A stretch of DNA of 64,000 bases from the NCBI GenBank assembly GCA_965261085.1, contig OZ253442.1, positions 2,592,001-2,656,000 of the forward strand, in the 5' to 3' direction. How positions within the stretch are numbered: the stretch's first letter is position 1; each line of letters begins with the position of its first letter. The notes under the pieces were generated by a model. The model was not told the DNA's origin. It worked only from the letters and a program-made list of their open reading frames with translations, and did no database searches. This document shows, piece by piece, positions 1-20,044 of this stretch. This stretch comes from a bacterium (GTDB lineage: Bacteria > UBA8248). Position numbers and translations under genes: made by a program.

Positions 1-562
1 TATCAATCAGGTGACGAGTCTGCTTGAAATGGTGAATGAATTCAGCCGGTTTGCGCGAATGCCGGAGCCGAGATTAAGGGTTTGCGGGTTTGTTCCCCTC
101 ATTGAGGATGTTGCAAATTTATATCGTGGCAGAAAAGGGGATGTAAAATTTTCCATTCATATCAATGCCGGGGATGCAGCCGTCATGGCGGATCCAGAGC
201 AGTTGCAACGCGTATTCATCAATTTGCTGGAAAACGCTTTCGAATCCCACGAGATCGAAGGCGAGATAGATTTACAAGCATGGGGTGATAAGAGCAGAAA
301 TATGATAGTTCTTGAGGTTGCTGACCAGGGGCAGGGTATATCGGAAGATATGAAAGGCCATATATTCTCGCCTTACTTTTCTACAAAAGATAGAGGCTCC
401 GGGTTAGGTTTGGCTATATGTCACCGCATTGTGGCAGATCATAATGGAACAATAAGCGTGCGAGATAACCATCCAGCGGGTTCTGTTTTTCGTGTAACGT
501 TGCCGCTGGCGCCTGCTGCGGACATCACACCTGAAAAGCAAAGGACGGCTTCCATTGGATAA
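1..562 (+). CDS. NtrY-like sensor histidine kinase, C-terminal HATPase part (5' end outside window)
   Basis: VNEFSRFARMP (NtrY-type post-H-box), N-box FINLLENA, G1 DQGQG, F-box FSPYFSTK, G2 GSGLGL; overlaps the following response regulator. Confidence 0.88.
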   Translation, partial: INQVTSLLEMVNEFSRFARMPEPRLRVCGFVPLIEDVANLYRGRKGDVKFSIHINAGDAAVMADPEQLQRVFINLLENAFESHEIEGEIDLQAWGDKSRNMIVLEVADQGQGISEDMKGHIFSPYFSTKDRGSGLGLAICHRIVADHNGTISVRDNHPAGSVFRVTLPLAPAADITPEKQRTASIG

Positions 563-2687
563 GGGACATATCCTCATCGTCGATGATGAGCGCGAAATAC
601 TCGCGAGCCTGGAAGATGTTTTGCACGATGAAGGGTATCGTGTAGAGAGGGCAGAGTCAGGAGAAACTGCCCTTCAGTTGGTTCGAACCGAAACTCCGGA
701 TGTGGTTTTAGTTGATGTGTGGATGCCGGGTATTGATGGAATCAAGACTTTGCAAGCGGTGAAAGAGTCGAACGCGGATATAGAAGTCGTCGTGATGTCG
801 GGTCACGGAAACATTGAAACCGCCGTGGCCGCAACAAAGTTAGGGGCTTTCAATTTTATTGAAAAACCTCTGTCTATCGATGCAGTTTTACGAATAGTCG
901 ATTCCGCTGTTCAAGCGCGAAGAGCCAAGGAACTCAAGGCGAATGATGTCGTCGATGTGATGCTTGACGGCGCTAGCAAGAGTATTCAAAGGGTTGGAAA
1001 AGCCATCAGGAGAGCGGCGAAAGATATTGACCCCTTACTGATTGCAGGTGAAAGAGGAACCGGCAAGCGTTTTATAGCCAGGGTGATTCATAAGAACGGT
1101 ACCAGCAAAGAAGAAGGTTTTAGGCCTGTTCATTGCCGCTCCCTGTTTCCGATGGCGGAGGTAAACGAATGGGAAGAGGCACTGGAGCGGTTGGTGCCCG
1201 ATACTTTTCAAGGGACGGTATATCTGGATGGTCTGGAGCAGCTACCCATGGCGGAGCGTGAGAGATTTCTCGCTCGATTCCTTGGGCATACGAAGGACTC
1301 AATGCGTTTAATGGTATCCGTTGATCACATGGGAACCCCGAAAGACAAGGCCTACGTGCGAGCCTTGTCCACCAAAATAGGCGCCGATGTAATACATTTG
1401 CCCTCTTTACGTGAACGCAAAGAGGACATTTTACCGTTGGCCAACAGATTTTTGAATGAATGTGCCGAAGTTGGTAGGTATGAAAAGGAATTCTCAGAAG
1501 ATGTCATTGCGCTTCTGGAAGACTATGACTGGCCGGGCAATATCGCAGAATTAAAAGGGGCGGTGACCAAAGCGGCATATTCATCACAAGGATCGGAGAT
1601 TCGCATCGGCCACTTGCCGTATGCGATACGCGAAGCTTCTGATTTCGAAGTGGACACATCAGAAAACGACGCCCCTTCTAATTTTAGTGCGGCCAGAACC
1701 GAGTGGGAGAGACAGTATCTTTCCTTCCATTTGGAGGAGCACGGTTGGGATATCAACAAAACCGCCCAGGCGGTGGGCATGACGGAATCTGGGTTAAAGC
1801 GTAAAATTAAAGCATACAACATAGAGCCCGTATTACCGGCGTCGACGACGCTTCGAGAAACAAATCAAAGGAGTATTTCGAAAAGTGTCGTCTTGTATGG
1901 CCGGGGGCTTCATTCAGGGCTGAAAACCGGCTTGATCATTGAACCCTTGCCGCCGGGGAGCGGAATTCAGTTCGGTAGCCTGACGAGCCCCGATACTGTG
2001 AGGGCGAATGTCGATTTTGTGGATGGCACCAACCATGCGACGAACTTGCGCAATGGAGCTGTGACGGCTCGAACGATAGAGCATCTCATGAGCGCGCTGC
2101 ACGCATACAAGATAAGCAATATACTCATTAAAATGAGTGAGGAAGTGCCTGTCATGGATGGGTCGGCAGTGGAGTTTTGCCGCTTGCTTGAAGAAGCGGG
2201 CATCGAGGATCAAAAGGAAAAACGCGCAGACTTGTGGGTTGATAAGGTTTACGAGGTAGGAGAACCGGGCGACGATAAAGGTTATATTCGTATAGAGTCG
2301 GCGGATTCTTTTTCGGTTTCATATCTCATCGATTATCCTGAGCCGATTGGAAAACAATCCTACCTGTATGAACATAAGAACGCGTTGAGTTTTCAAGAAG
2401 AAATCGCGCCTGCCCGTACGTTTGGTTTTGTTTCTGAACTGGAGTCGCTCGAGAAAATGGGCTTGGCCGAGGGAGGTCGTTGGGATAACGTGATTCTTGT
2501 GGACAAAGCGCGTGTCGTAAATACCCAATTGCGATTTCCTAACGAGTTTGTTCGCCATAAAATTCTTGACGTTATAGGAGATCTGTATTTAACCGGTCGC
2601 CCTATTCGAGGAAAAGTGACCGCCGAGAGAAGTGGCCACCGGCATAATGTCGCCTTGGTCAAAAAGTTGATGGAAGTCCATGGCTGA
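555..2687 (+). CDS. lpxC: Fusion: NtrX-like REC + degenerate sigma54-type AAA+ + Fis HTH + full LpxC (UDP-3-O-acyl-GlcNAc deacetylase)
   Basis: REC VDDE, D54 (VDVWMP), SGHG, FIEKP; AAA+ GERGTGK, LPSLRERKEDI, WPGNIAEL; HTH KTAQAVGM; from aa ~438 (nt ~1866) LpxC motifs QRSI..GRGLHSG, TIEHL, PVMDGSA, APARTFGF, RHKILDVIGD, SGH. Confidence 0.93.
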   Translation: MDKGHILIVDDEREILASLEDVLHDEGYRVERAESGETALQLVRTETPDVVLVDVWMPGIDGIKTLQAVKESNADIEVVVMSGHGNIETAVAATKLGAFNFIEKPLSIDAVLRIVDSAVQARRAKELKANDVVDVMLDGASKSIQRVGKAIRRAAKDIDPLLIAGERGTGKRFIARVIHKNGTSKEEGFRPVHCRSLFPMAEVNEWEEALERLVPDTFQGTVYLDGLEQLPMAERERFLARFLGHTKDSMRLMVSVDHMGTPKDKAYVRALSTKIGADVIHLPSLRERKEDILPLANRFLNECAEVGRYEKEFSEDVIALLEDYDWPGNIAELKGAVTKAAYSSQGSEIRIGHLPYAIREASDFEVDTSENDAPSNFSAARTEWERQYLSFHLEEHGWDINKTAQAVGMTESGLKRKIKAYNIEPVLPASTTLRETNQRSISKSVVLYGRGLHSGLKTGLIIEPLPPGSGIQFGSLTSPDTVRANVDFVDGTNHATNLRNGAVTARTIEHLMSALHAYKISNILIKMSEEVPVMDGSAVEFCRLLEEAGIEDQKEKRADLWVDKVYEVGEPGDDKGYIRIESADSFSVSYLIDYPEPIGKQSYLYEHKNALSFQEEIAPARTFGFVSELESLEKMGLAEGGRWDNVILVDKARVVNTQLRFPNEFVRHKILDVIGDLYLTGRPIRGKVTAERSGHRHNVALVKKLMEVHG

Positions 2688-4472: not shown

Positions 4473-5201
4473 TTGCGTAAATCGAGTTTCTTGATATTAG
4501 TATTTGTTTTTTTGCTTTTCGCGTTTTCGCAAGAGCGTGCTCTCAGCGCATCTATGGCGGAAGAATCGCGTCTGAAGGCGGAGAAAATAATCACGACGCT
4601 TCAGGAAAAATTTGAGGCTCTCGAATCTCTGCAAGCCTCTTTCGAGCAGAAAAATGAAATAAAATCCCTTGGGCGAACAACGACGTCGAGCGGGAGTCTC
4701 TCGTGGAAGAAGCCCGGCAAATTGCGCATGGAGTATGTCAAGCCTGAAAAGCAGGTTCTGGTCTCTGATGGTCATACGTTTTGGCTCTACACCGCTCGCT
4801 TCAGACAGGTGATGGTTTCCAAAACCGGGGGTTCTGGGTTTGGAGCCACCCCTTTGTTATTTTTGTCGGGCGAGGGGAATTTGAAAAAGAATTTTCATGT
4901 AATCGTGGAAGAGATTGGAATTGCCAGACGAAGTGAAGGAATCTGGAGAGCCGGTCAGCCCCATCGCATTCGGCTGGAGCCGAAGTCTCCGGGCGCATCA
5001 TTTAGCCGAATGTGGGTTGAGGTGGAACCTGAGAATTTCGTAATCCTCACTTTGGCGTATATTGATAATATCGGCAACAAAAGTCACTTGCGGTTTTCAA
5101 ACGTCAAAGAAAACGTCAAAATCGCAGAAGAGGAATTTCAGTTTGTTGTGCCGCCAAATGTCGAAGTACTACAAATGCCGGCTCAGAGCGGCCAGCGATA
5201 A
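4473..5201 (+). CDS. lolA: Outer-membrane lipoprotein carrier LolA
   Basis: Signal peptide; ASFEQ, KKPGKLRMEY, LVSDGHTFWLY, FQFVVPPNVEV. Confidence 0.85.
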   Translation: MRKSSFLILVFVFLLFAFSQERALSASMAEESRLKAEKIITTLQEKFEALESLQASFEQKNEIKSLGRTTTSSGSLSWKKPGKLRMEYVKPEKQVLVSDGHTFWLYTARFRQVMVSKTGGSGFGATPLLFLSGEGNLKKNFHVIVEEIGIARRSEGIWRAGQPHRIRLEPKSPGASFSRMWVEVEPENFVILTLAYIDNIGNKSHLRFSNVKENVKIAEEEFQFVVPPNVEVLQMPAQSGQR

Positions 5202-5219: not shown

Positions 5220-6416
5220 ATGGCGATGCAAATCATAAACTGGGTGATGGGTTTGGGGCAGACGATTTTCTGGGCTGTACTGGTTCTGGGGTTACTCATT
5301 TTTATCCATGAGTTGGGCCACCATCTCGTCGCAAAATGGCTCAAAATCGGCGTTTCCACATTTTCTTTAGGCTTCGGTCGCCGCATTTGGGGCTTTCAAC
5401 GAGGAGAGACTGAATATCGTATTTCGCTCATCCCCTTGGGTGGTTATGTAAAGCTTGTGGGAGAAGATCCAGAAGCGCAACCTGATAATCCCGATGCGCC
5501 CAAAGAGCCGGATGAGCCGGAGAAATCCTTCTACTTGCGGCCTGTGAGCCACCGATTGGCTGTCATTTCGGCGGGCCCCTTGTTTAATGTCGTCCTGGCG
5601 ATTCTCCTCAGTTGGGGATTGCACTTTGGCGGCATTCCTGTGCCGGGAACGTGGGTTGGCGGTGTTTTGCCTGATACGCCTGCGCAAAAAGCGAACCTTC
5701 AAACTGGCGATCATATCGTGGCTATTGATGGAAAACGAATTCAAAAATGGTCCGAGCTCGTCGAAATTGTACGAAAAAATGCCGATAAAAAACTCGTGTT
5801 GACGGTGGAGCGTAGCCGCAATTCCTTTGAAACGCTCATTGTTCCGACATCGAGGAGCGCGACGGGCAAAGAATTGGGTTATGGCCGGATCGGCATTAGT
5901 ATCGGCCAAGGCGCCTACTCCGAGCGTTTTGGCTTCCTTGAGTCTTTGGGGAAGGGAATCGAGCAAAACTACCGCATCGCCAGCTTAACGGTCTTTACGC
6001 TGTATTCGATGCTCACGAAGACCATTCCTGCGGATATCGGAGGGCCGATTCGTATTTCTATGGTGGCCGCGGAGCAGGCGCAGCGCGGATTCCGCTACCT
6101 CGTCATGTTCACGATTTTGCTCAGCGTCAATCTGGCGATTTTGAACTTGCTGCCAATCCCGGTTCTCGATGGTGGGCACATTTTTTTCTTGCTTGTTGAA
6201 GGCTTGCGTGGCAAACCTATTAGCCTGAGAATCCGGGAACTGGCCATGCAGGTGGGCACCGTTCTACTAATCGGGTTGATGATCTTTGCCACTTACAAGG
6301 ACAGTGTGTATTATCTTTTTAGTAGTGAATCGTCATCGATAACGAAAAATGAGAAGCAAGAAGGGAAAGTGAAGAGCGCAACGAAGCCATCTCCAGAAAG
6401 CAGAAAAGGCGAATAG
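5220..6416 (+). CDS. rseP: RIP metalloprotease RseP
   Basis: HELGH, IPLGGYVK, AGPLFN, PDZ segment, NLLPIPVLDGG. Confidence 0.96.
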   Translation: MAMQIINWVMGLGQTIFWAVLVLGLLIFIHELGHHLVAKWLKIGVSTFSLGFGRRIWGFQRGETEYRISLIPLGGYVKLVGEDPEAQPDNPDAPKEPDEPEKSFYLRPVSHRLAVISAGPLFNVVLAILLSWGLHFGGIPVPGTWVGGVLPDTPAQKANLQTGDHIVAIDGKRIQKWSELVEIVRKNADKKLVLTVERSRNSFETLIVPTSRSATGKELGYGRIGISIGQGAYSERFGFLESLGKGIEQNYRIASLTVFTLYSMLTKTIPADIGGPIRISMVAAEQAQRGFRYLVMFTILLSVNLAILNLLPIPVLDGGHIFFLLVEGLRGKPISLRIRELAMQVGTVLLIGLMIFATYKDSVYYLFSSESSSITKNEKQEGKVKSATKPSPESRKGE

Positions 6417-11619: not shown

Positions 11620-13539
11620 TTGAATCAATTTTACAAGAATTTAGCGCTTTGGCTGATTATTGGGTTGATAATGGTGGGTTTGTTTCAAGCCTTCAATAGC
11701 CCGCGATCGACGGACAGAACGGTTATCTACAGCGATTTTCTGCAAGCGGTATCTGATGGACAGGTGAGTGAGGTGGTTGTCCAAGGAGACAACATAAGGG
11801 GTCTCTACCTTAGCGGCAGATCTTTTCATACCCACGCTCCCAAGGACCCGAAATTGATCGACACACTCAGGGCCAAAGGCGTTCGCATCACGTCGCAGCC
11901 CGTGGAACAAAACTCTTGGTATATGAGTATGTTGTTGAGTTGGTTGCCTATGCTGGTGATGCTGGGTGTTTGGATTTTCTTCATGCGTCAGATGCAGATG
12001 GGTGGCTCTAAAGCTATGTCGTTTGGGAAAAGCAAAGCACGAATGATGCCCGAATCTGCGAAGAAAAAGGTTACATTCGCGGATGTGGCCGGCATCGAGG
12101 AAGCAAAGGAAGAACTCGAAGAACTCGTTGATTTTCTCCGTGACCCGCAAAAATTCACACGCTTGGGTGCTCGTATTCCCAAGGGTGTTCTTATGGTTGG
12201 TCCTCCGGGCACGGGTAAAACCCTGCTGGCACGGGCTATCGCGGGCGAAGCGGATGTGCCGTTTTTCTCTATAAGTGGTTCAAGTTTTGTGGAGATGTTT
12301 GTCGGGGTCGGGGCGTCGAGGGTCCGGGATTTATTCGAGCAGGGCAAAGCGCATGCGCCTTGCATCATTTTCATCGATGAGATTGATGCTGTCGGGCGAC
12401 ATAGGGGCGCTGGCCTCGGTGGCGGCCACGATGAGCGTGAGCAGACGCTCAATCAACTTCTTGTCGAAATGGATGGTTTTGAATCGAATGATGGGGTCAT
12501 CTTGATAGCGGCGACGAACCGGCCCGACGTGTTGGATCCGGCTCTCCTCAGGCCTGGCCGCTTTGACCGCCAGATTGTCGTTTCCTTGCCCGATATCAAA
12601 GGACGCTTGGCGATTTTGGAGGTGCATGCCGCGAAGGTGCCGCTCAGCGAATCCGTCGACTTGAATCTGATAGCGCGGGGAACTCCGCGATTTGCGGGCG
12701 CTGATTTGGCCAACCTTTTAAACGAATCCGCACTCTTGGCGGCGCGCCGTGGAAAACATTCGGTCGGAAATGACGACTTGATGGAAGCGAAAGATAAAGT
12801 ATTGATGGGCAAGGAGCGGCGCAGTTTGGTGCTCAGTGAAAAGGAGAAGAAGAACACAGCTTTCCATGAGGCGGGACACGCCCTTGTTTCATTGCTGATA
12901 CCGGGGACGGACCCCGTCGAGAAGGTGACGATTATCCCGCGAGGTTTTTCGTTGGGAAGTACATGGTCTTCGCCTGTTGAGGATCGCTATAGCAACGACA
13001 AAACATTTTTGACGAACCAGCTTGCTTGCCTCATGGGTGGACGTGCGGCGGAGATGCTGGTTTTTCAAGAGTTGACGACAGGAGCGAAAGCCGACATCCA
13101 GACGTCGACTGACCTGGGGAGAAGCATGGTTTGTGAATGGGGGATGAGCGAGAAACTCGGTCCTTTGGCCTACGGAAAAAAACAGGAGCAAATTTTCCTG
13201 GGTCGTGAAATCTCACAGCACAGGGATTATAGCGACCAGGTGGCCCTGGAAATTGATAATGAAGTGAAAAGCATGGTCTCGTCGAGTTATGAGAGAGCGT
13301 ATAAATTGCTCGAGGAAAATCGGGACAAGCTCGATTTGCTCGCCAATGCGCTGCTTGAGTATGAAACCATCGATCTCAAAGACATCAAGTCTTTGATGGA
13401 AACCGGGGAGATTTCCAGGAGTCGTAAGCGAAAAGACGAGGTTGGCGAAGAAAACGTTTCAGTCTCTCCACAGCCGGAGAAAAACCCTCGCGAGGATCCG
13501 CAGGCGTCGCCGACGGACTTGGCGCCCGGACAAGCCTAG
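11620..13539 (+). CDS. ftsH: ATP-dependent zinc metalloprotease FtsH
   Basis: Two TMs, [37 protein letters not shown]. Confidence 0.98.
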
Positions 13540-16574: not shown

Positions 16575-17186
16575 ATGCTTTTCCGTAAGATGCTGAGAAT
16601 GGTGTTGCTGGGCTTTCTACTCGCGATTGGCGGTACAATTGCCTATTTTATCGTGAGTTCTTCGGATCATCTTCTGAATATAGGAGAATTTTCGTTCACA
16701 GACTCGGATGCGGACTTCAATATAGATAAAGTGCATGTAGTTGAAAACACAAAAGGCGTCAGGGAGTGGGAGTTGTGGGCGGACTCCGCCAAGGTGTACC
16801 GGCAAAAAGATTTGACCATTCTGAAGAATCTGAAGCTTCGTTTTTATCCGAAAGAAGGTGAACCGGCGCATGTGACCGCCCAGGAAGGAACCATGCAGAA
16901 CGAGAGTCGAAACATTAGAATCAGCGGCAATGTCACCATCTTAGCGTCGAATGGCGTTTCAATGAAAACAGACTCTTTGTATTTTCGCTCAAAAGAAAAA
17001 CGCATTGATTCGGATTCGCAGGTTTTGATGGAAGGGGCTCGCTTTCGCTTGATCGGCACTGGCCTACAAGGGCAAACAGATCTGGGGAATTACAAATTGA
17101 AGGAAAATGTGAGCGCTACGATATACGGTGCGAGCAATGATTTCCTCAACCAGGAAAGAGGAAATAAGCTTATTCGCGCCAAATAA
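16575..17186 (+). CDS. lptC: LPS export protein LptC
   Basis: N-terminal TM, WELWADSA, beta-jellyroll pattern; first gene of lptCAB-rpoN. Confidence 0.85.
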   Translation: MLFRKMLRMVLLGFLLAIGGTIAYFIVSSSDHLLNIGEFSFTDSDADFNIDKVHVVENTKGVREWELWADSAKVYRQKDLTILKNLKLRFYPKEGEPAHVTAQEGTMQNESRNIRISGNVTILASNGVSMKTDSLYFRSKEKRIDSDSQVLMEGARFRLIGTGLQGQTDLGNYKLKENVSATIYGASNDFLNQERGNKLIRAK

Positions 17187-17221
17187 GGGAGCATACGGCC
17201 GATCCCGAATGGAGGGCTGTT

Positions 17222-17815
17222 TTGAAACCGAAAAACTACCGCCTGAAGCGTTTTGGCCCCATTGGTATAGGGTTATGCTTAGTTTTTTCATTGTGGACTG
17301 GCTCTTACTCATTCGCACAGCCAAAAAACAAGCAAAGCCGATTAAACCGCAAGGCTCCGATTCACATTACCTCCAACAAGATGGAAGTGAACAGCCGGAA
17401 GAATCTCATCGTGTTCATCGGGGATGTAAAGGCGAATCAGGGAAACATGCGCATAAAAGCGGATCGTCTCGAAGTATATACGCTGGAAGCTAAGCGACCG
17501 GGCTCGAAGCGTAGGCTGGCCCCCAAGGACAGGGCAGGGGAAGTCGATAGAATTGTGGCCATCGGAAACGTGAACATGGATCAAGCGAAAAGAAGGTTTG
17601 CCACTGCAGCTCGGCTTGAATATCGAGAATCCACCGGCATCGCTGTATTGACAGGAAGCCCTCGCGTGTGGGAAGGAAAGAATCAGCTAGTCGGCGCCAA
17701 AATAGAATTGAATTTGAAAGAAGAAAAAACGATAGTTCATGGCTCACCTCGCCGGAGAGTCAGCGTTACCCTTTTTCCTTCCAGCGAGACACCACGCCGC
17801 AAAAAATCCAATTAG
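17222..17815 (+). CDS. lptA: LPS transport periplasmic protein LptA
   Basis: [35 protein letters not shown]. Confidence 0.88.
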
Positions 17816-17819
17816 ACTC

Positions 17820-18584
17820 ATGGCTACGAGAACCGACGGCAATGCGATTCGACACGGCGGGGTTGTCTCAATTCTCGCCACTGGATTAACGAAAAGCTAT
17901 TCTGGCCGAAAGGTTGTCTCCGGCGTGGAGCTCGAAGTACATCCCGGCGAAATTGTGAGTTTGCTTGGACCAAACGGGGCCGGCAAAACGACGATATTCT
18001 ATATGATTGTCGGGTTAATCGTTCCAGATTCGGGAAAAATATTTTTGAACGGCAGGGAAATCACCGACCAGCCCATGTATATGCGCGCCAAGCAGGGAAT
18101 CAGCTATTTGCCTCAGGAGGCGTCTGTGTTTCGTCGTCTTTCGGTGAGGCAAAACATCATGGCGGTGCTTGAATTGGTTTCGAGTGATCCAAACCAGCGC
18201 GAGAAACGATTGTATGAAATTTTAGAGGACCTGGATATCAAGCACATTCAATCTGTGAAGGGATATGCCCTCTCCGGCGGTGAACGTAGGCGTGTGGAAA
18301 TTGCCAGGGCATTGGCCACAAATCCCGATTTTATGCTCCTTGATGAGCCTTTTGCCGGTATTGATCCGATCGTGGTTCACGATATCCAGAACATTGTGGC
18401 GGGCTTAAAAGCTCGTGGAATTGGAGTCATTATCACGGACCACAATGTGCGCGAGGCCTTTCAGATATCCGACAGGGTATACATCATCAATGAGGGACAG
18501 ATACTGGAGTCTGGTATCCCTGAGGAAATTGCCGCCAGCGATAAGGCTCGGGATGTTTATCTGGGCGAAAAATTTCGTCTTTGA
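17820..18584 (+). CDS. lptB: LPS export ABC ATPase LptB
   Basis: [55 protein letters not shown]. Confidence 0.97.
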
Positions 18585-18601
18585 AGGCGAGAGGAATAAA
18601 C

Positions 18602-20044
18602 ATGGCTTTGCAGCATAAGATGGTAATGAAGACGGAGCAACGTCTCGTCATGACCGCCATGTTGCGGCAGGCGATTGGCCTTTTGCCTCTGGGCCGCACG
18701 GAAATGCAGCAAGCCGTTCAGCAGGAAATGTTGAACAATCCCTTGCTGGAAGAAATCCAGGATGAAATGAAAGAGGTAGCTGACGGCGATATGCCGGAAT
18801 TGAGAGACGATGTTCCCGAGAGTCAAAATGATGAAAGAGGCGAAGTGGAAATCGATTGGGGAAACATTGTGCAGGACAATTATGATGATTTCTCGCCTAC
18901 AACCTTCGATGATGAATTCCCCTCTCATGAACAGACCTTGGCGCGGCCCGATACGTTGCATGAGCACTTGGCATGGCAATTGAGTCTTTCGGTGGTTCCT
19001 GAGCCGATAGCAAGGGTTGCCGAGCAAATAATTTGGAATGTAAATGACGAGGGTTATATTGAGGTTGATGCGGAGGGGTTGGCGGACAGTGTGGGTCTGG
19101 GGCCTCTTGAGGCTGATAAGGCATTGGCTTTAGTGCAAGGATTCAATCCACCTGGCGTTGCTGCGAGAACACTTCAAGAGTGTCTCATTATACAATTGAA
19201 AAATTATGAATTATCTATGAATGGCAATAGCCGTTTTGTGGATTTGGCGCGAGTCTTGTTGCTTGAAGACATTGAGAAGATAGGTGAGCGGCAATATGCG
19301 AAACTGGCCAAGGCTAACGGCGTAGATGAAGACGATATCATTCAGGCCATCCACATCATTCGCAGTCTTGATCCTTACCCGGGGTTGCGTTTTTCCGAGC
19401 AAAGAGTGGAGGTAGTGACCCCGGACGTGAGCGTCACTAAGAGGGGAGATGATTATGAGGTAATACTCAACGACGATGGCCTACCTCCCCTGCGTGTGAA
19501 TTCTCTTTATGCAGCTATGGCAGCCGACAAAGCGGGGACTTCTCTAGATACGCGGAAATATTTAGAGGAAAGGCTCAGGGCGGCTGCATGGTTCGTCAAA
19601 AGCATAGAGCAAAGAAGACAGACGATTCTGAAAGTTTGCCGAAGCATTGTGCGTTTTCAAAAGGATTTCTTGGAAGATGGCGTGAGTTGCTTAAAACCCC
19701 TGATTTTGAGGGATGTGGCCCAAGATATCGGGATGCACGAATCGACCGTGAGTCGTGTTACGACAGGCAAGTATATGGATACGCCGCAGGGTGTTTTGAG
19801 CTTCAAGTATTTTTTCCACAGCGGGTTGGAATCGAGTGAGGGGAAGAGCACCTCTTCGGTAGCAGTAAAGGAGACCATCAAGAAAATAGTGGAACAGGAA
19901 AACCGTGAGAAGCCGCTCACCGACCAACATATTGTGGATAGACTCAAGCAAGACAACGTGGCGATAGCGAGGCGGACGGTGACAAAATACCGCAAAGAAC
20001 TGCGCATCTCTCCCGCTAGTAAAAGGCGCAAAATGCATCGATGA
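18602..20044 (+). CDS. rpoN: RNA polymerase sigma-54 factor
   Basis: HESTVSR, RpoN box ARRTVTKYR. Confidence 0.97.
   Translation: MALQHKMVMKTEQRLVMTAMLRQAIGLLPLGRTEMQQAVQQEMLNNPLLEEIQDEMKEVADGDMPELRDDVPESQNDERGEVEIDWGNIVQDNYDDFSPTTFDDEFPSHEQTLARPDTLHEHLAWQLSLSVVPEPIARVAEQIIWNVNDEGYIEVDAEGLADSVGLGPLEADKALALVQGFNPPGVAARTLQECLIIQLKNYELSMNGNSRFVDLARVLLLEDIEKIGERQYAKLAKANGVDEDDIIQAIHIIRSLDPYPGLRFSEQRVEVVTPDVSVTKRGDDYEVILNDDGLPPLRVNSLYAAMAADKAGTSLDTRKYLEERLRAAAWFVKSIEQRRQTILKVCRSIVRFQKDFLEDGVSCLKPLILRDVAQDIGMHESTVSRVTTGKYMDTPQGVLSFKYFFHSGLESSEGKSTSSVAVKETIKKIVEQENREKPLTDQHIVDRLKQDNVAIARRTVTKYRKELRISPASKRRKMHR

Follow-up and report, generated by a model that had tools for sequence, protein, structure and literature searches.

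Lipid A synthesis is committed by the enzyme LpxC, and a locus in which LpxC is encoded as the last domain of a two-component response regulator raises the question of how that commitment is controlled. The locus lies in a 64,000-nucleotide stretch of a bacterial genome (lineage UBA8248; contig OZ253442.1 of GCA_965261085.1, positions 2,592,001 to 2,656,000 of the forward strand), hereafter the window, in which positions 555..2687 of the forward strand form one 710-aa open reading frame (ORF) with a TTG start. The ORF list and Pfam matches agree with an initial annotation, made from the letters alone, that a single frame joins a receiver domain (REC), a degenerate AAA+ domain, a Fis-type helix-turn-helix (HTH) and a complete LpxC. 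The REC domain (Response_reg, residues 6-114, 570..896, 6.7e-30), with its phospho-acceptor D54 at nt 714-716, is followed on the same strand by the AAA+ core (Sigma54_activ_2, residues 139-285, a weak match at 7.6e-10) with its lid (AAA_lid_14, residues 286-365; together 969..1649), the HTH (HTH_8, residues 383-421, 1701..1817; 26.6 bits against a cut-off of 22), a 16-residue linker of variable sequence (1818..1865; alignment and AlphaFold2) and the LpxC domain (residues 438-706, 1866..2672, 1.5e-81), after which come only 4 residues, without a C-terminal tail. Residues 5-421 matched the NtrX model of NCBIfam best (NF051870, 248.8 bits, under its cut-off of 600) and aligned end to end with Brucella NtrX (PDB 5m7n; 9e-47), the best solved relative. 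Since the score lies under the cut-off, the N-terminal module is, on these matches, NtrX-like and not an NtrX equivalog. Judging from sequence comparison, we think it probable that control of lpxC has moved in this family from transcription to direct, post-translational phospho-control of the enzyme, which would more likely act on activity than on stability.

The initial annotation had described a full LpxC with intact zinc and catalytic motifs, and alignment with the solved LpxC chains of P. aeruginosa, A. aeolicus and E. coli (about 1e-46 to 1e-42) bore this out. The match to PF03331 covers profile positions 1-267 of 268 (274.3 bits against a cut-off of 27), the TIGR00325 lpxC model gives 232.9 bits against a cut-off of 187.25, and the EH, ARTFGF, HKILDxIGD and GH motifs are all kept. 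We take the EH, HKxxDxxxD and GH motifs and the T-F of ARTFGF to hold the zinc-ligand and catalytic roles in LpxC; E509, H510, T622, F623, H668, K669, D672, D676 and H695 are invariant in 116 sequences. The genome itself, one 4.27-Mb contig that is 96% complete, encodes LpxB and has exactly one PF03331 match, the fusion, and a check for a second lpxC found none. To judge from these matches, the fused enzyme is the organism's housekeeping LpxC. An internal start codon ahead of LpxC had been denied in the annotation, which proved right for the linker (residues 410-446 hold no in-frame ATG, GTG or TTG) and wrong for the HTH, where TTG393, GTG407 and ATG409 are found; a further in-frame TTG447 lies inside the LpxC domain. 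None of these four codons has a Shine-Dalgarno sequence at a suitable distance, and the aligned relatives do not conserve M409. Parts of the gene, among them 1836-2027 and 510-688, are matched by contigs from two RNA libraries (X15, X16), which is not proof of transcription.

A search for the same architecture across genomes found it throughout the phylum, and the relatives do not all have separate ntrX and lpxC genes. Fifty of 51 Nitrospinota genomes contained a match to the fusion: 34 held the whole long form in one frame, in 5 the long form was interrupted by contig ends or frameshifts (G009, G011, G013, G019, G029), and 11 held a short form, a single frame of 409-538 aa made up of REC (about residues 1-127) and LpxC (about 432-707). 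When the same 51 genomes were searched with PF03331, one lpxC locus was found in each of 50, always fused (double rows being pieces of one gene), while G003 (93% complete), the only Nitrospinota genome without a fusion match, yielded no LpxC match of any sort. Among the matches listed there were 120 protein relatives, all with PF03331, comprising 110 long proteins of the same architecture (680-766 aa, 40-99% identity), 5 short REC+LpxC proteins and 5 fragments, and the ESM Atlas contained one cluster with the same Pfam set (381 members, most commonly Nitrospinota). No form lacking REC was seen among the fusion relatives. Two candidates for such a form were rejected: in G009, REC lies in another frame at a contig end, and P0054 appears to be the frameshifted gene of G029, since the contigs of the two have the same length (46,889 nt). 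Within Nitrospinota, the short form reads as a deletion in place, since in G025 the order DUF4390-NtrY-[REC-LpxC]-PurM-PurN preserves the synteny of the long form and the linker of P0053 retains a remnant of the last HTH helix.

Outside Nitrospinota, long forms came from records labelled Thermodesulfobacteriota and Desulfomonilaceae, and short forms from Acidobacteriota (Thermoanaerobaculia, Holophagae), Binatota, Nitrospirota, Myxococcota-labelled bins and Desulfocapsaceae; the fused gene was the only LpxC in four of the five genomes examined there. Most of a sample of 121 Acidobacteriota genomes had a free LpxC, and 4 short fusions were confirmed (G051, G060, G099, G170). The length of the open frame was tried as a proxy for short fusions in this sample and was discarded, the five genomes with frames of 439-509 aa being made up of 3 with REC-LpxC and 2 with a free LpxC. 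A divergent clade of short REC-LpxC proteins (L053, L058, L059, L066, L070), which includes that of Desulfopila sp. IMCC35006, is set apart by a long branch, a 10-residue insertion and ARSFNT where ARTFGF would stand; these proteins may be paralogs that act on another substrate or serve another function. Fusion genes were also seen on short contigs of metagenome-assembled genomes (MAGs) titled 'Promethearchaeota archaeon' (L019; 3.2 kb, coverage 0.34) and 'Enterobacteriaceae' (L033), which are probably mis-binned bacterial contigs and not real hosts.

Conservation along the fused protein is uneven. The phospho-pocket of REC, said from the first to be intact, is complete in the window protein (D10, D11, D54, S82, K104) and remains so across the family: none of 111 long-form relatives lacks D54, S/T82 or K104, and 109 have D10/D11, the remaining two being N-terminally short. 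The AAA+ domain was likewise correctly described as degraded, and the arginine-finger motif of free activators, FREDLYYRL, has gone as well, replaced by unconserved residues. In the window protein, Walker A (GERGTGK) is intact, Walker B has D-G (LDG) and not D-E, and GAFTGA, the loop that contacts sigma54, is absent. Among the long forms, Walker A is kept in 110/111, Walker B D-E in only 4/111 and a GAFTGA-like loop in 0/111, and the Nitrospinota clade has lost ~11 residues after Walker B. Read from these motifs, the AAA+ domain of the fusion can no longer activate sigma54; rpoN is present in the genome and in the window. Average conservation follows the same pattern, with 62 distant long forms sharing 53% (REC) and 55% (LpxC) identity with the window protein as against 24% in the AAA+ core, 36% in the lid and 36% in the HTH. 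Conservation of the receiver and the enzyme around a decayed middle is the pattern expected if the receiver acts on the attached enzyme; it is not expected of a neutral device for co-expression, and neither is the loss of AAA+ and HTH with REC and LpxC kept. In the recognition helix of the HTH, L414 is found in 110/111 long forms, R/K416 in 98/111 and K417 in 72/111, and since these basic residues are largely kept, DNA binding may persist in long forms.

The free-standing relatives of the N-terminal module suggest what it did before it was fused. A scan of one genome per species gave the top 80 loci, whose stop-to-stop frames were compared with the window proteins by BLASTP. All 17 loci with a free-standing relative of the module (17/17) had the order lpxC-(DUF4390)-ntrY-like kinase-regulator; they were labelled Geobacteraceae, Desulfuromonadales, 'Deltaproteobacteria', Acidobacteriota, Methylomirabilota/Rokubacteria, Thermodesulfobacteriota and Desulfobacterales. 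Among the free-standing relatives retrieved, these regulators come closest to the module; they carry GAFTGA or GSFTGA in 15/17 cases, plus Walker B LDE and FREDLYYRL, and are by their motifs real sigma54 activators. A -24/-12 element was predicted 11-55 nt before the extrapolated lpxC start in 10/10 of the loci that include the 5' end of lpxC, within the first 750 nt (L048, L049, L050, L051, L052, L055, L057, L061, L064, L075); the remaining 7 loci end inside lpxC and stand outside this count. Elements were scored against TGGCAC-N5-TTGCW, the sigma54 consensus, requiring an exact GG and GC and a match at 9 or more of the 11 positions. This criterion gave 43 background matches in about 529 kb of strand from 29 fused loci, roughly one every 12 kb. 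In the same 29 fused loci no such element was found just upstream of the fused gene or operon, and none occurred in the 64-kb window at 10 of 11 positions or better. Since the ten loci are related to one another, they stand for roughly four or more independent lineages and not for ten. A separate lpxC behind a predicted sigma54 promoter, together with an intact activator, indicates that control is transcriptional in these clusters.

What is probably the same arrangement has in part been described before. In D. vulgaris, the response regulator DVU2934 had lpxC as its single DAP-chip target and bound upstream of it; orthologs were noted in Geobacter lovleyi and Acidobacterium capsulatum, and the operon of the orthologous response regulator of S. 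fumaroxidans is immediately preceded by lpxC, a synteny which, as given in the accessible part of that paper, is the one found here in the unfused clusters (PMC3333781). An Acidobacteriota locus (G120:C50:37641-41115), in which a free lpxC is followed 2.3 kb downstream on the same strand by a receiver-containing regulator, is probably another unfused cluster. The placing of an essential gene behind an activator-dependent promoter is unusual in itself. In one of the clusters (L052), the free lpxC contains a frameshift.

To place the fusion among LpxC enzymes, 190 LpxC domains were collected; dropping all but three of the P rows more than 88% identical to the window left 157, and an 80% identity filter within each category reduced these to 71 (31 long, including the frameshifted L023; 22 short; 10 free; 8 free-in-cluster). 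The branch parting all 53 fused from all 18 free domains had an SH-aLRT support of 99 (IQ-TREE, quick run) and a FastTree support of 100, which is consistent with one origin of the fusion, within a free set limited to the LpxC genes that the top 80 loci contained. Short forms require 6 changes on this tree, at least 3 of them forced by well-supported branches. As the first branches among the fused domains are weakly supported short forms, either the long or the short form may be ancestral on the LpxC tree, and direct support for deletion of AAA+ and HTH is confined to Nitrospinota. The proposal that an enhancer-binding protein was repurposed is well supported by these comparisons, since its free relatives are intact sigma54 activators, the fused proteins have lost the corresponding motifs, and AAA+ and HTH have been deleted in several lineages that retain REC-LpxC.

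The kinase that would act on the receiver is encoded next to it. The 3' part of an NtrY-type sensor histidine kinase gene occupies 2..562 of the window on the forward strand, its frame open at the 5' end where the window edge cuts it, and stops 8 nt inside the fusion gene, so that the overlap reported in the annotation stands. The full gene (L014:8298-10562) encodes 754 aa with NtrY_N, HAMP, PAS, HisKA and HATPase_c, and its transmembrane segments flank a ~165-aa loop that is probably periplasmic. Just upstream lies a DUF4390 gene whose product has an N-terminal signal-like segment, and with these layouts both proteins appear placed to sense the envelope. The order (mutS)-DUF4390-ntrY-fusion was found in 17/17 Nitrospinota loci fetched, with DUF4390 detectable in 15/17. 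A sigma70-like promoter upstream of DUF4390 is conserved across Nitrospinota (14 loci); in this genome it reads TTGAGA, 17 nt, TAGCAT and falls upstream of the window, in the region L014:7560-7690 (G000:C1 about 2589560-2589690). A search of the same 14 loci for an operator upstream of the DUF4390-ntrY-fusion operon returned only these -35/-10 elements and a poorly conserved short palindrome, GCCTTGAAGGC, ~30 nt upstream of the promoter.

From these observations, a sequence of events can be proposed. The ancestral state would have been an NtrY-type kinase and a sigma54 activator governing transcription of the adjacent lpxC. Once the activator had become fused to LpxC, the parts serving only sigma54 activation would have been free to decay or vanish, while the phospho-site of REC and the enzyme would have stayed under selection. 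At present, the membrane kinase, which has a periplasmic loop and is encoded just after a secreted DUF4390 protein, would sense an envelope signal and phosphorylate D54 of the fusion, and the altered domain packing or oligomeric state would switch LpxC on or off. This is the most likely route, and control of LpxC stability a less likely one. In the long form, the AAA+ domain would survive as a nucleotide-binding scaffold or spacer, and the HTH may still bind DNA. That phosphorylation of REC acts on LpxC is what we infer, and our guess as to its direction is activation, by analogy with the activator of the unfused clusters. Twelve positions are conserved in fused LpxC domains and different in free ones (V446, T458, G459, H516, L524, K526, C542, Y594, P595, L648, T657 and Y678; K526, for instance, is E or D in the free enzymes), and these are candidates for a REC-facing surface. 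A wider reading, which we offer tentatively, is that Nitrospinota and scattered lineages of at least five other phyla have exchanged transcriptional and proteolytic control of LpxC for a direct phospho-switch, and that a ring or dimer of the pseudo-AAA+ domain makes activity in the long form cooperative in phosphorylation. The stages of such a transition would then survive within the family, as a sigma54 activator beside a sigma54-driven lpxC, an activator-LpxC with a pseudo-ATPase and a minimal REC-LpxC.

Several observations weigh against direct phospho-control of the fused enzyme. AlphaFold2 folded the four domains of the long form well (mean pLDDT 81.4) and gave no confident arrangement of them (pTM 0.51), with low-confidence linkers at residues 127-135, 364-375 and 427-431; no secondary structure was predicted at 421-434, and pLDDT fell below 50 at 427-431. 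The short form (pLDDT 84.8, pTM 0.71) was modelled with a disordered linker of ~40 residues (133-171). A prediction of REC (1-128) in complex with LpxC (432-710) scored 0.06 and 0.02 against a mark of 0.32, in a run without controls, and we give it no weight in either direction. Short-form linkers are long and unconserved, and as sequences they fit a loose tether as well as a switch. Outside Nitrospinota, an NtrY-like kinase was present in the fetched flank of 3/28 short-form loci, some of these flanks being short. The cultured Desulfopila sp. IMCC35006 carries a canonical LpxC in addition to REC-LpxC, and the fusion need not be the housekeeping enzyme in the clade of Desulfopila and its relatives, to judge from this gene content. 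The recognition helix of the HTH is conserved well enough in long forms that a role linked to DNA may be retained there. Finally, DVU2934 probably belongs with the cluster regulators, a likening made through its published description, in the part available, and not through its sequence.

Some of these observations would also suit a simpler use of the fusion, in which the N-terminal module is an ordinary NtrX-like, DNA-binding regulator and LpxC is constitutive, so that fusion merely sets stoichiometry or proximity to DNA. An HTH_8 is detected and in long forms has retained most of the basic residues of its recognition helix, the domains are joined by flexible linkers in the AlphaFold2 models, and Brucella NtrX likewise has no GAFTGA in the alignment with the fusion. 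We nevertheless regard this explanation as unlikely. Short forms devoid of AAA+ and HTH have arisen at least three times and are still the sole LpxC of their genomes, REC is retained throughout, sequence change in the AAA+ core and HTH is far faster than in REC and LpxC, and the search for an upstream operator gave only the promoter-like element. Because short forms have no HTH, the idea of a DNA tether is, on sequence grounds, weakened for the family as a whole, and less so for the long form.

Phosphorylation might instead set the amount of protein, the state of REC exposing or hiding a degron for FtsH, Lon or Clp and so replacing the C-terminal-tail route of E. coli. FtsH controls E. coli LpxC through its C-terminal end, as far as can be taken from the accessible parts of two papers (PMC3333781, PMC12444477), and the title of reference B22 in the first of these states that this end is needed for degradation by FtsH. 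The fused enzymes are without the tail of free LpxCs, 2-12 residues (median 6, n=37) following the Pfam domain as against 11-165 (median 29, n=38) in free enzymes. FtsH is encoded in the window at 11620-13536, 9 kb downstream of the fusion, and no match to the LapB zinc ribbon (PF18073) was found in the genome, a weak negative since this unspecific, 28-position model also matches Gram-positive controls. The disordered linkers, for their part, are unconserved, which points the other way, and we give this explanation a small probability.

An artefact of assembly or sequencing, in which loss of a stop codon or a frameshift in one assembly has run separate ntrX and lpxC genes together, or a pseudogene, has practically no chance of being the explanation and is already refuted. 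The same uninterrupted long frame occurs in 34 Nitrospinota genomes, the architecture is shared by over 100 proteins in the database (40-99% identity) and by the Atlas cluster of 381 members, and the junction is crossed gap-free in contigs of two other studies. The stretch was present in 20 of 24 listed public runs (10 studies), 14 of which held at least half of the sampled words. In run X2 a 6285-nt contig spans 86-3000, and in run X11, from another study, a 1522-nt contig spans 1425-2945; both differ by substitutions only, and no insertions or deletions were seen in any of the 4 runs aligned. The linker has neither a stop nor a frameshift, the check for which the annotation had asked. Frameshifts in the fused gene were seen in single MAGs, near the C-terminus of LpxC in L112 (G029:C19) and between REC and AAA+ in L111 (G009:C67) and L023; such shifts are expected of draft MAGs and may reflect either assembly error or a pseudogene.

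The surroundings of the fusion gene are rich in envelope genes. Between 4473 and 20044 the window encodes LolA (4473-5201), an RseP-type M50 protease (5220-6416) and, at 16575-20044, LptC, LptA, LptB and RpoN. Upstream of the window, 3.4 kb before the kinase and ahead of mutS, L014:4470-4865 codes for a membrane protein of 132 aa that contains a LapA_dom (lipopolysaccharide assembly protein A domain).

The flux into lipid A is set by LpxC, and both excess and deficiency are lethal. The fusion family offers a mode of control in which the signal input is covalently joined to the enzyme and which could be tested in vitro with one purified protein. As a Rosetta-stone link, it would tie NtrY-type kinases and the uncharacterised periplasmic DUF4390 to homeostasis of lipopolysaccharide (LPS) across many phyla, and it would explain published, indirect connections between NtrYX and lpxC. 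It is also a clear natural case of a regulator fused to the product of its own target, after which the machinery for transcription decays, and its phylum-wide occurrence suggests phosphorylation as a direct switch of outer-membrane synthesis. Response regulators with enzymatic output are already known, and so is two-component control of lpxC; what is new is the committed enzyme of lipid A synthesis as the output domain itself. The initial annotation knew of no characterised example, and our literature search agreed: no mention of LpxC as a response-regulator output domain was found, nor any description, in a full-text search with most subscription journals outside its coverage, of LpxC fused to a receiver or an NtrX-like module, so that the fusion is apparently undescribed. 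In the part available, a 2025 review of lipid A regulation treats control of LpxC outside Enterobacteria as an open question, counts the links between NtrYX and lpxC as transcriptional and makes no mention of 'fusion' or 'fused' (PMC12444477).

Of known systems, NtrY/NtrX resembles the fusion in having, as in Brucella NtrX (5m7n), a REC domain, a AAA+ domain without GAFTGA and a Fis-type HTH, and the fusion has an NtrY-type kinase directly upstream. Unlike NtrX, it lacks the Walker B Glu and the arginine-finger motif and ends in a complete LpxC. In alphaproteobacteria, NtrYX has been published to influence both lpxC expression and LPS. The published effect of NtrX on lpxC is transcriptional, and in R. 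sphaeroides indirect: according to the portion of the study available, loss of NtrYX raised lpxC mRNA 8.8-fold and increased LPS, and no NtrX site was found at lpxC (PMC7240162). The unfused sigma54 activator clusters of Desulfuromonadales, Geobacteraceae, Acidobacteriota and Methylomirabilota share with the fusion the type of kinase, often DUF4390, and the presence of lpxC in the cluster; they differ in that the fusion has no sigma54 promoter and the enzyme has become part of the regulator. With E. coli LpxC, which is controlled by FtsH/LapB proteolysis, the fusion shares the enzyme, the committed step and the need to limit flux, as the accessible text of the review describes them (PMC12444477), whereas the fused enzyme has no C-terminal tail and its control is proposed to run through a covalently attached receiver. 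The bifunctional LpxC/FabZ (NCBIfam NF009667, a model that matches the LpxC part of the window protein only) is likewise a natural LpxC fusion; its partner FabZ is a pathway-related enzyme at the C-terminus, whereas here a signalling module stands at the N-terminus. Finally, CheB, PleD/WspR and RpfG are response regulators with enzymatic output domains, in which an N-terminal REC and a linker precede a catalytic domain, as in the fusion. In CheB, REC occludes the active site, and in PleD it drives oligomerisation; the short REC-LpxC has exactly the layout of these proteins.

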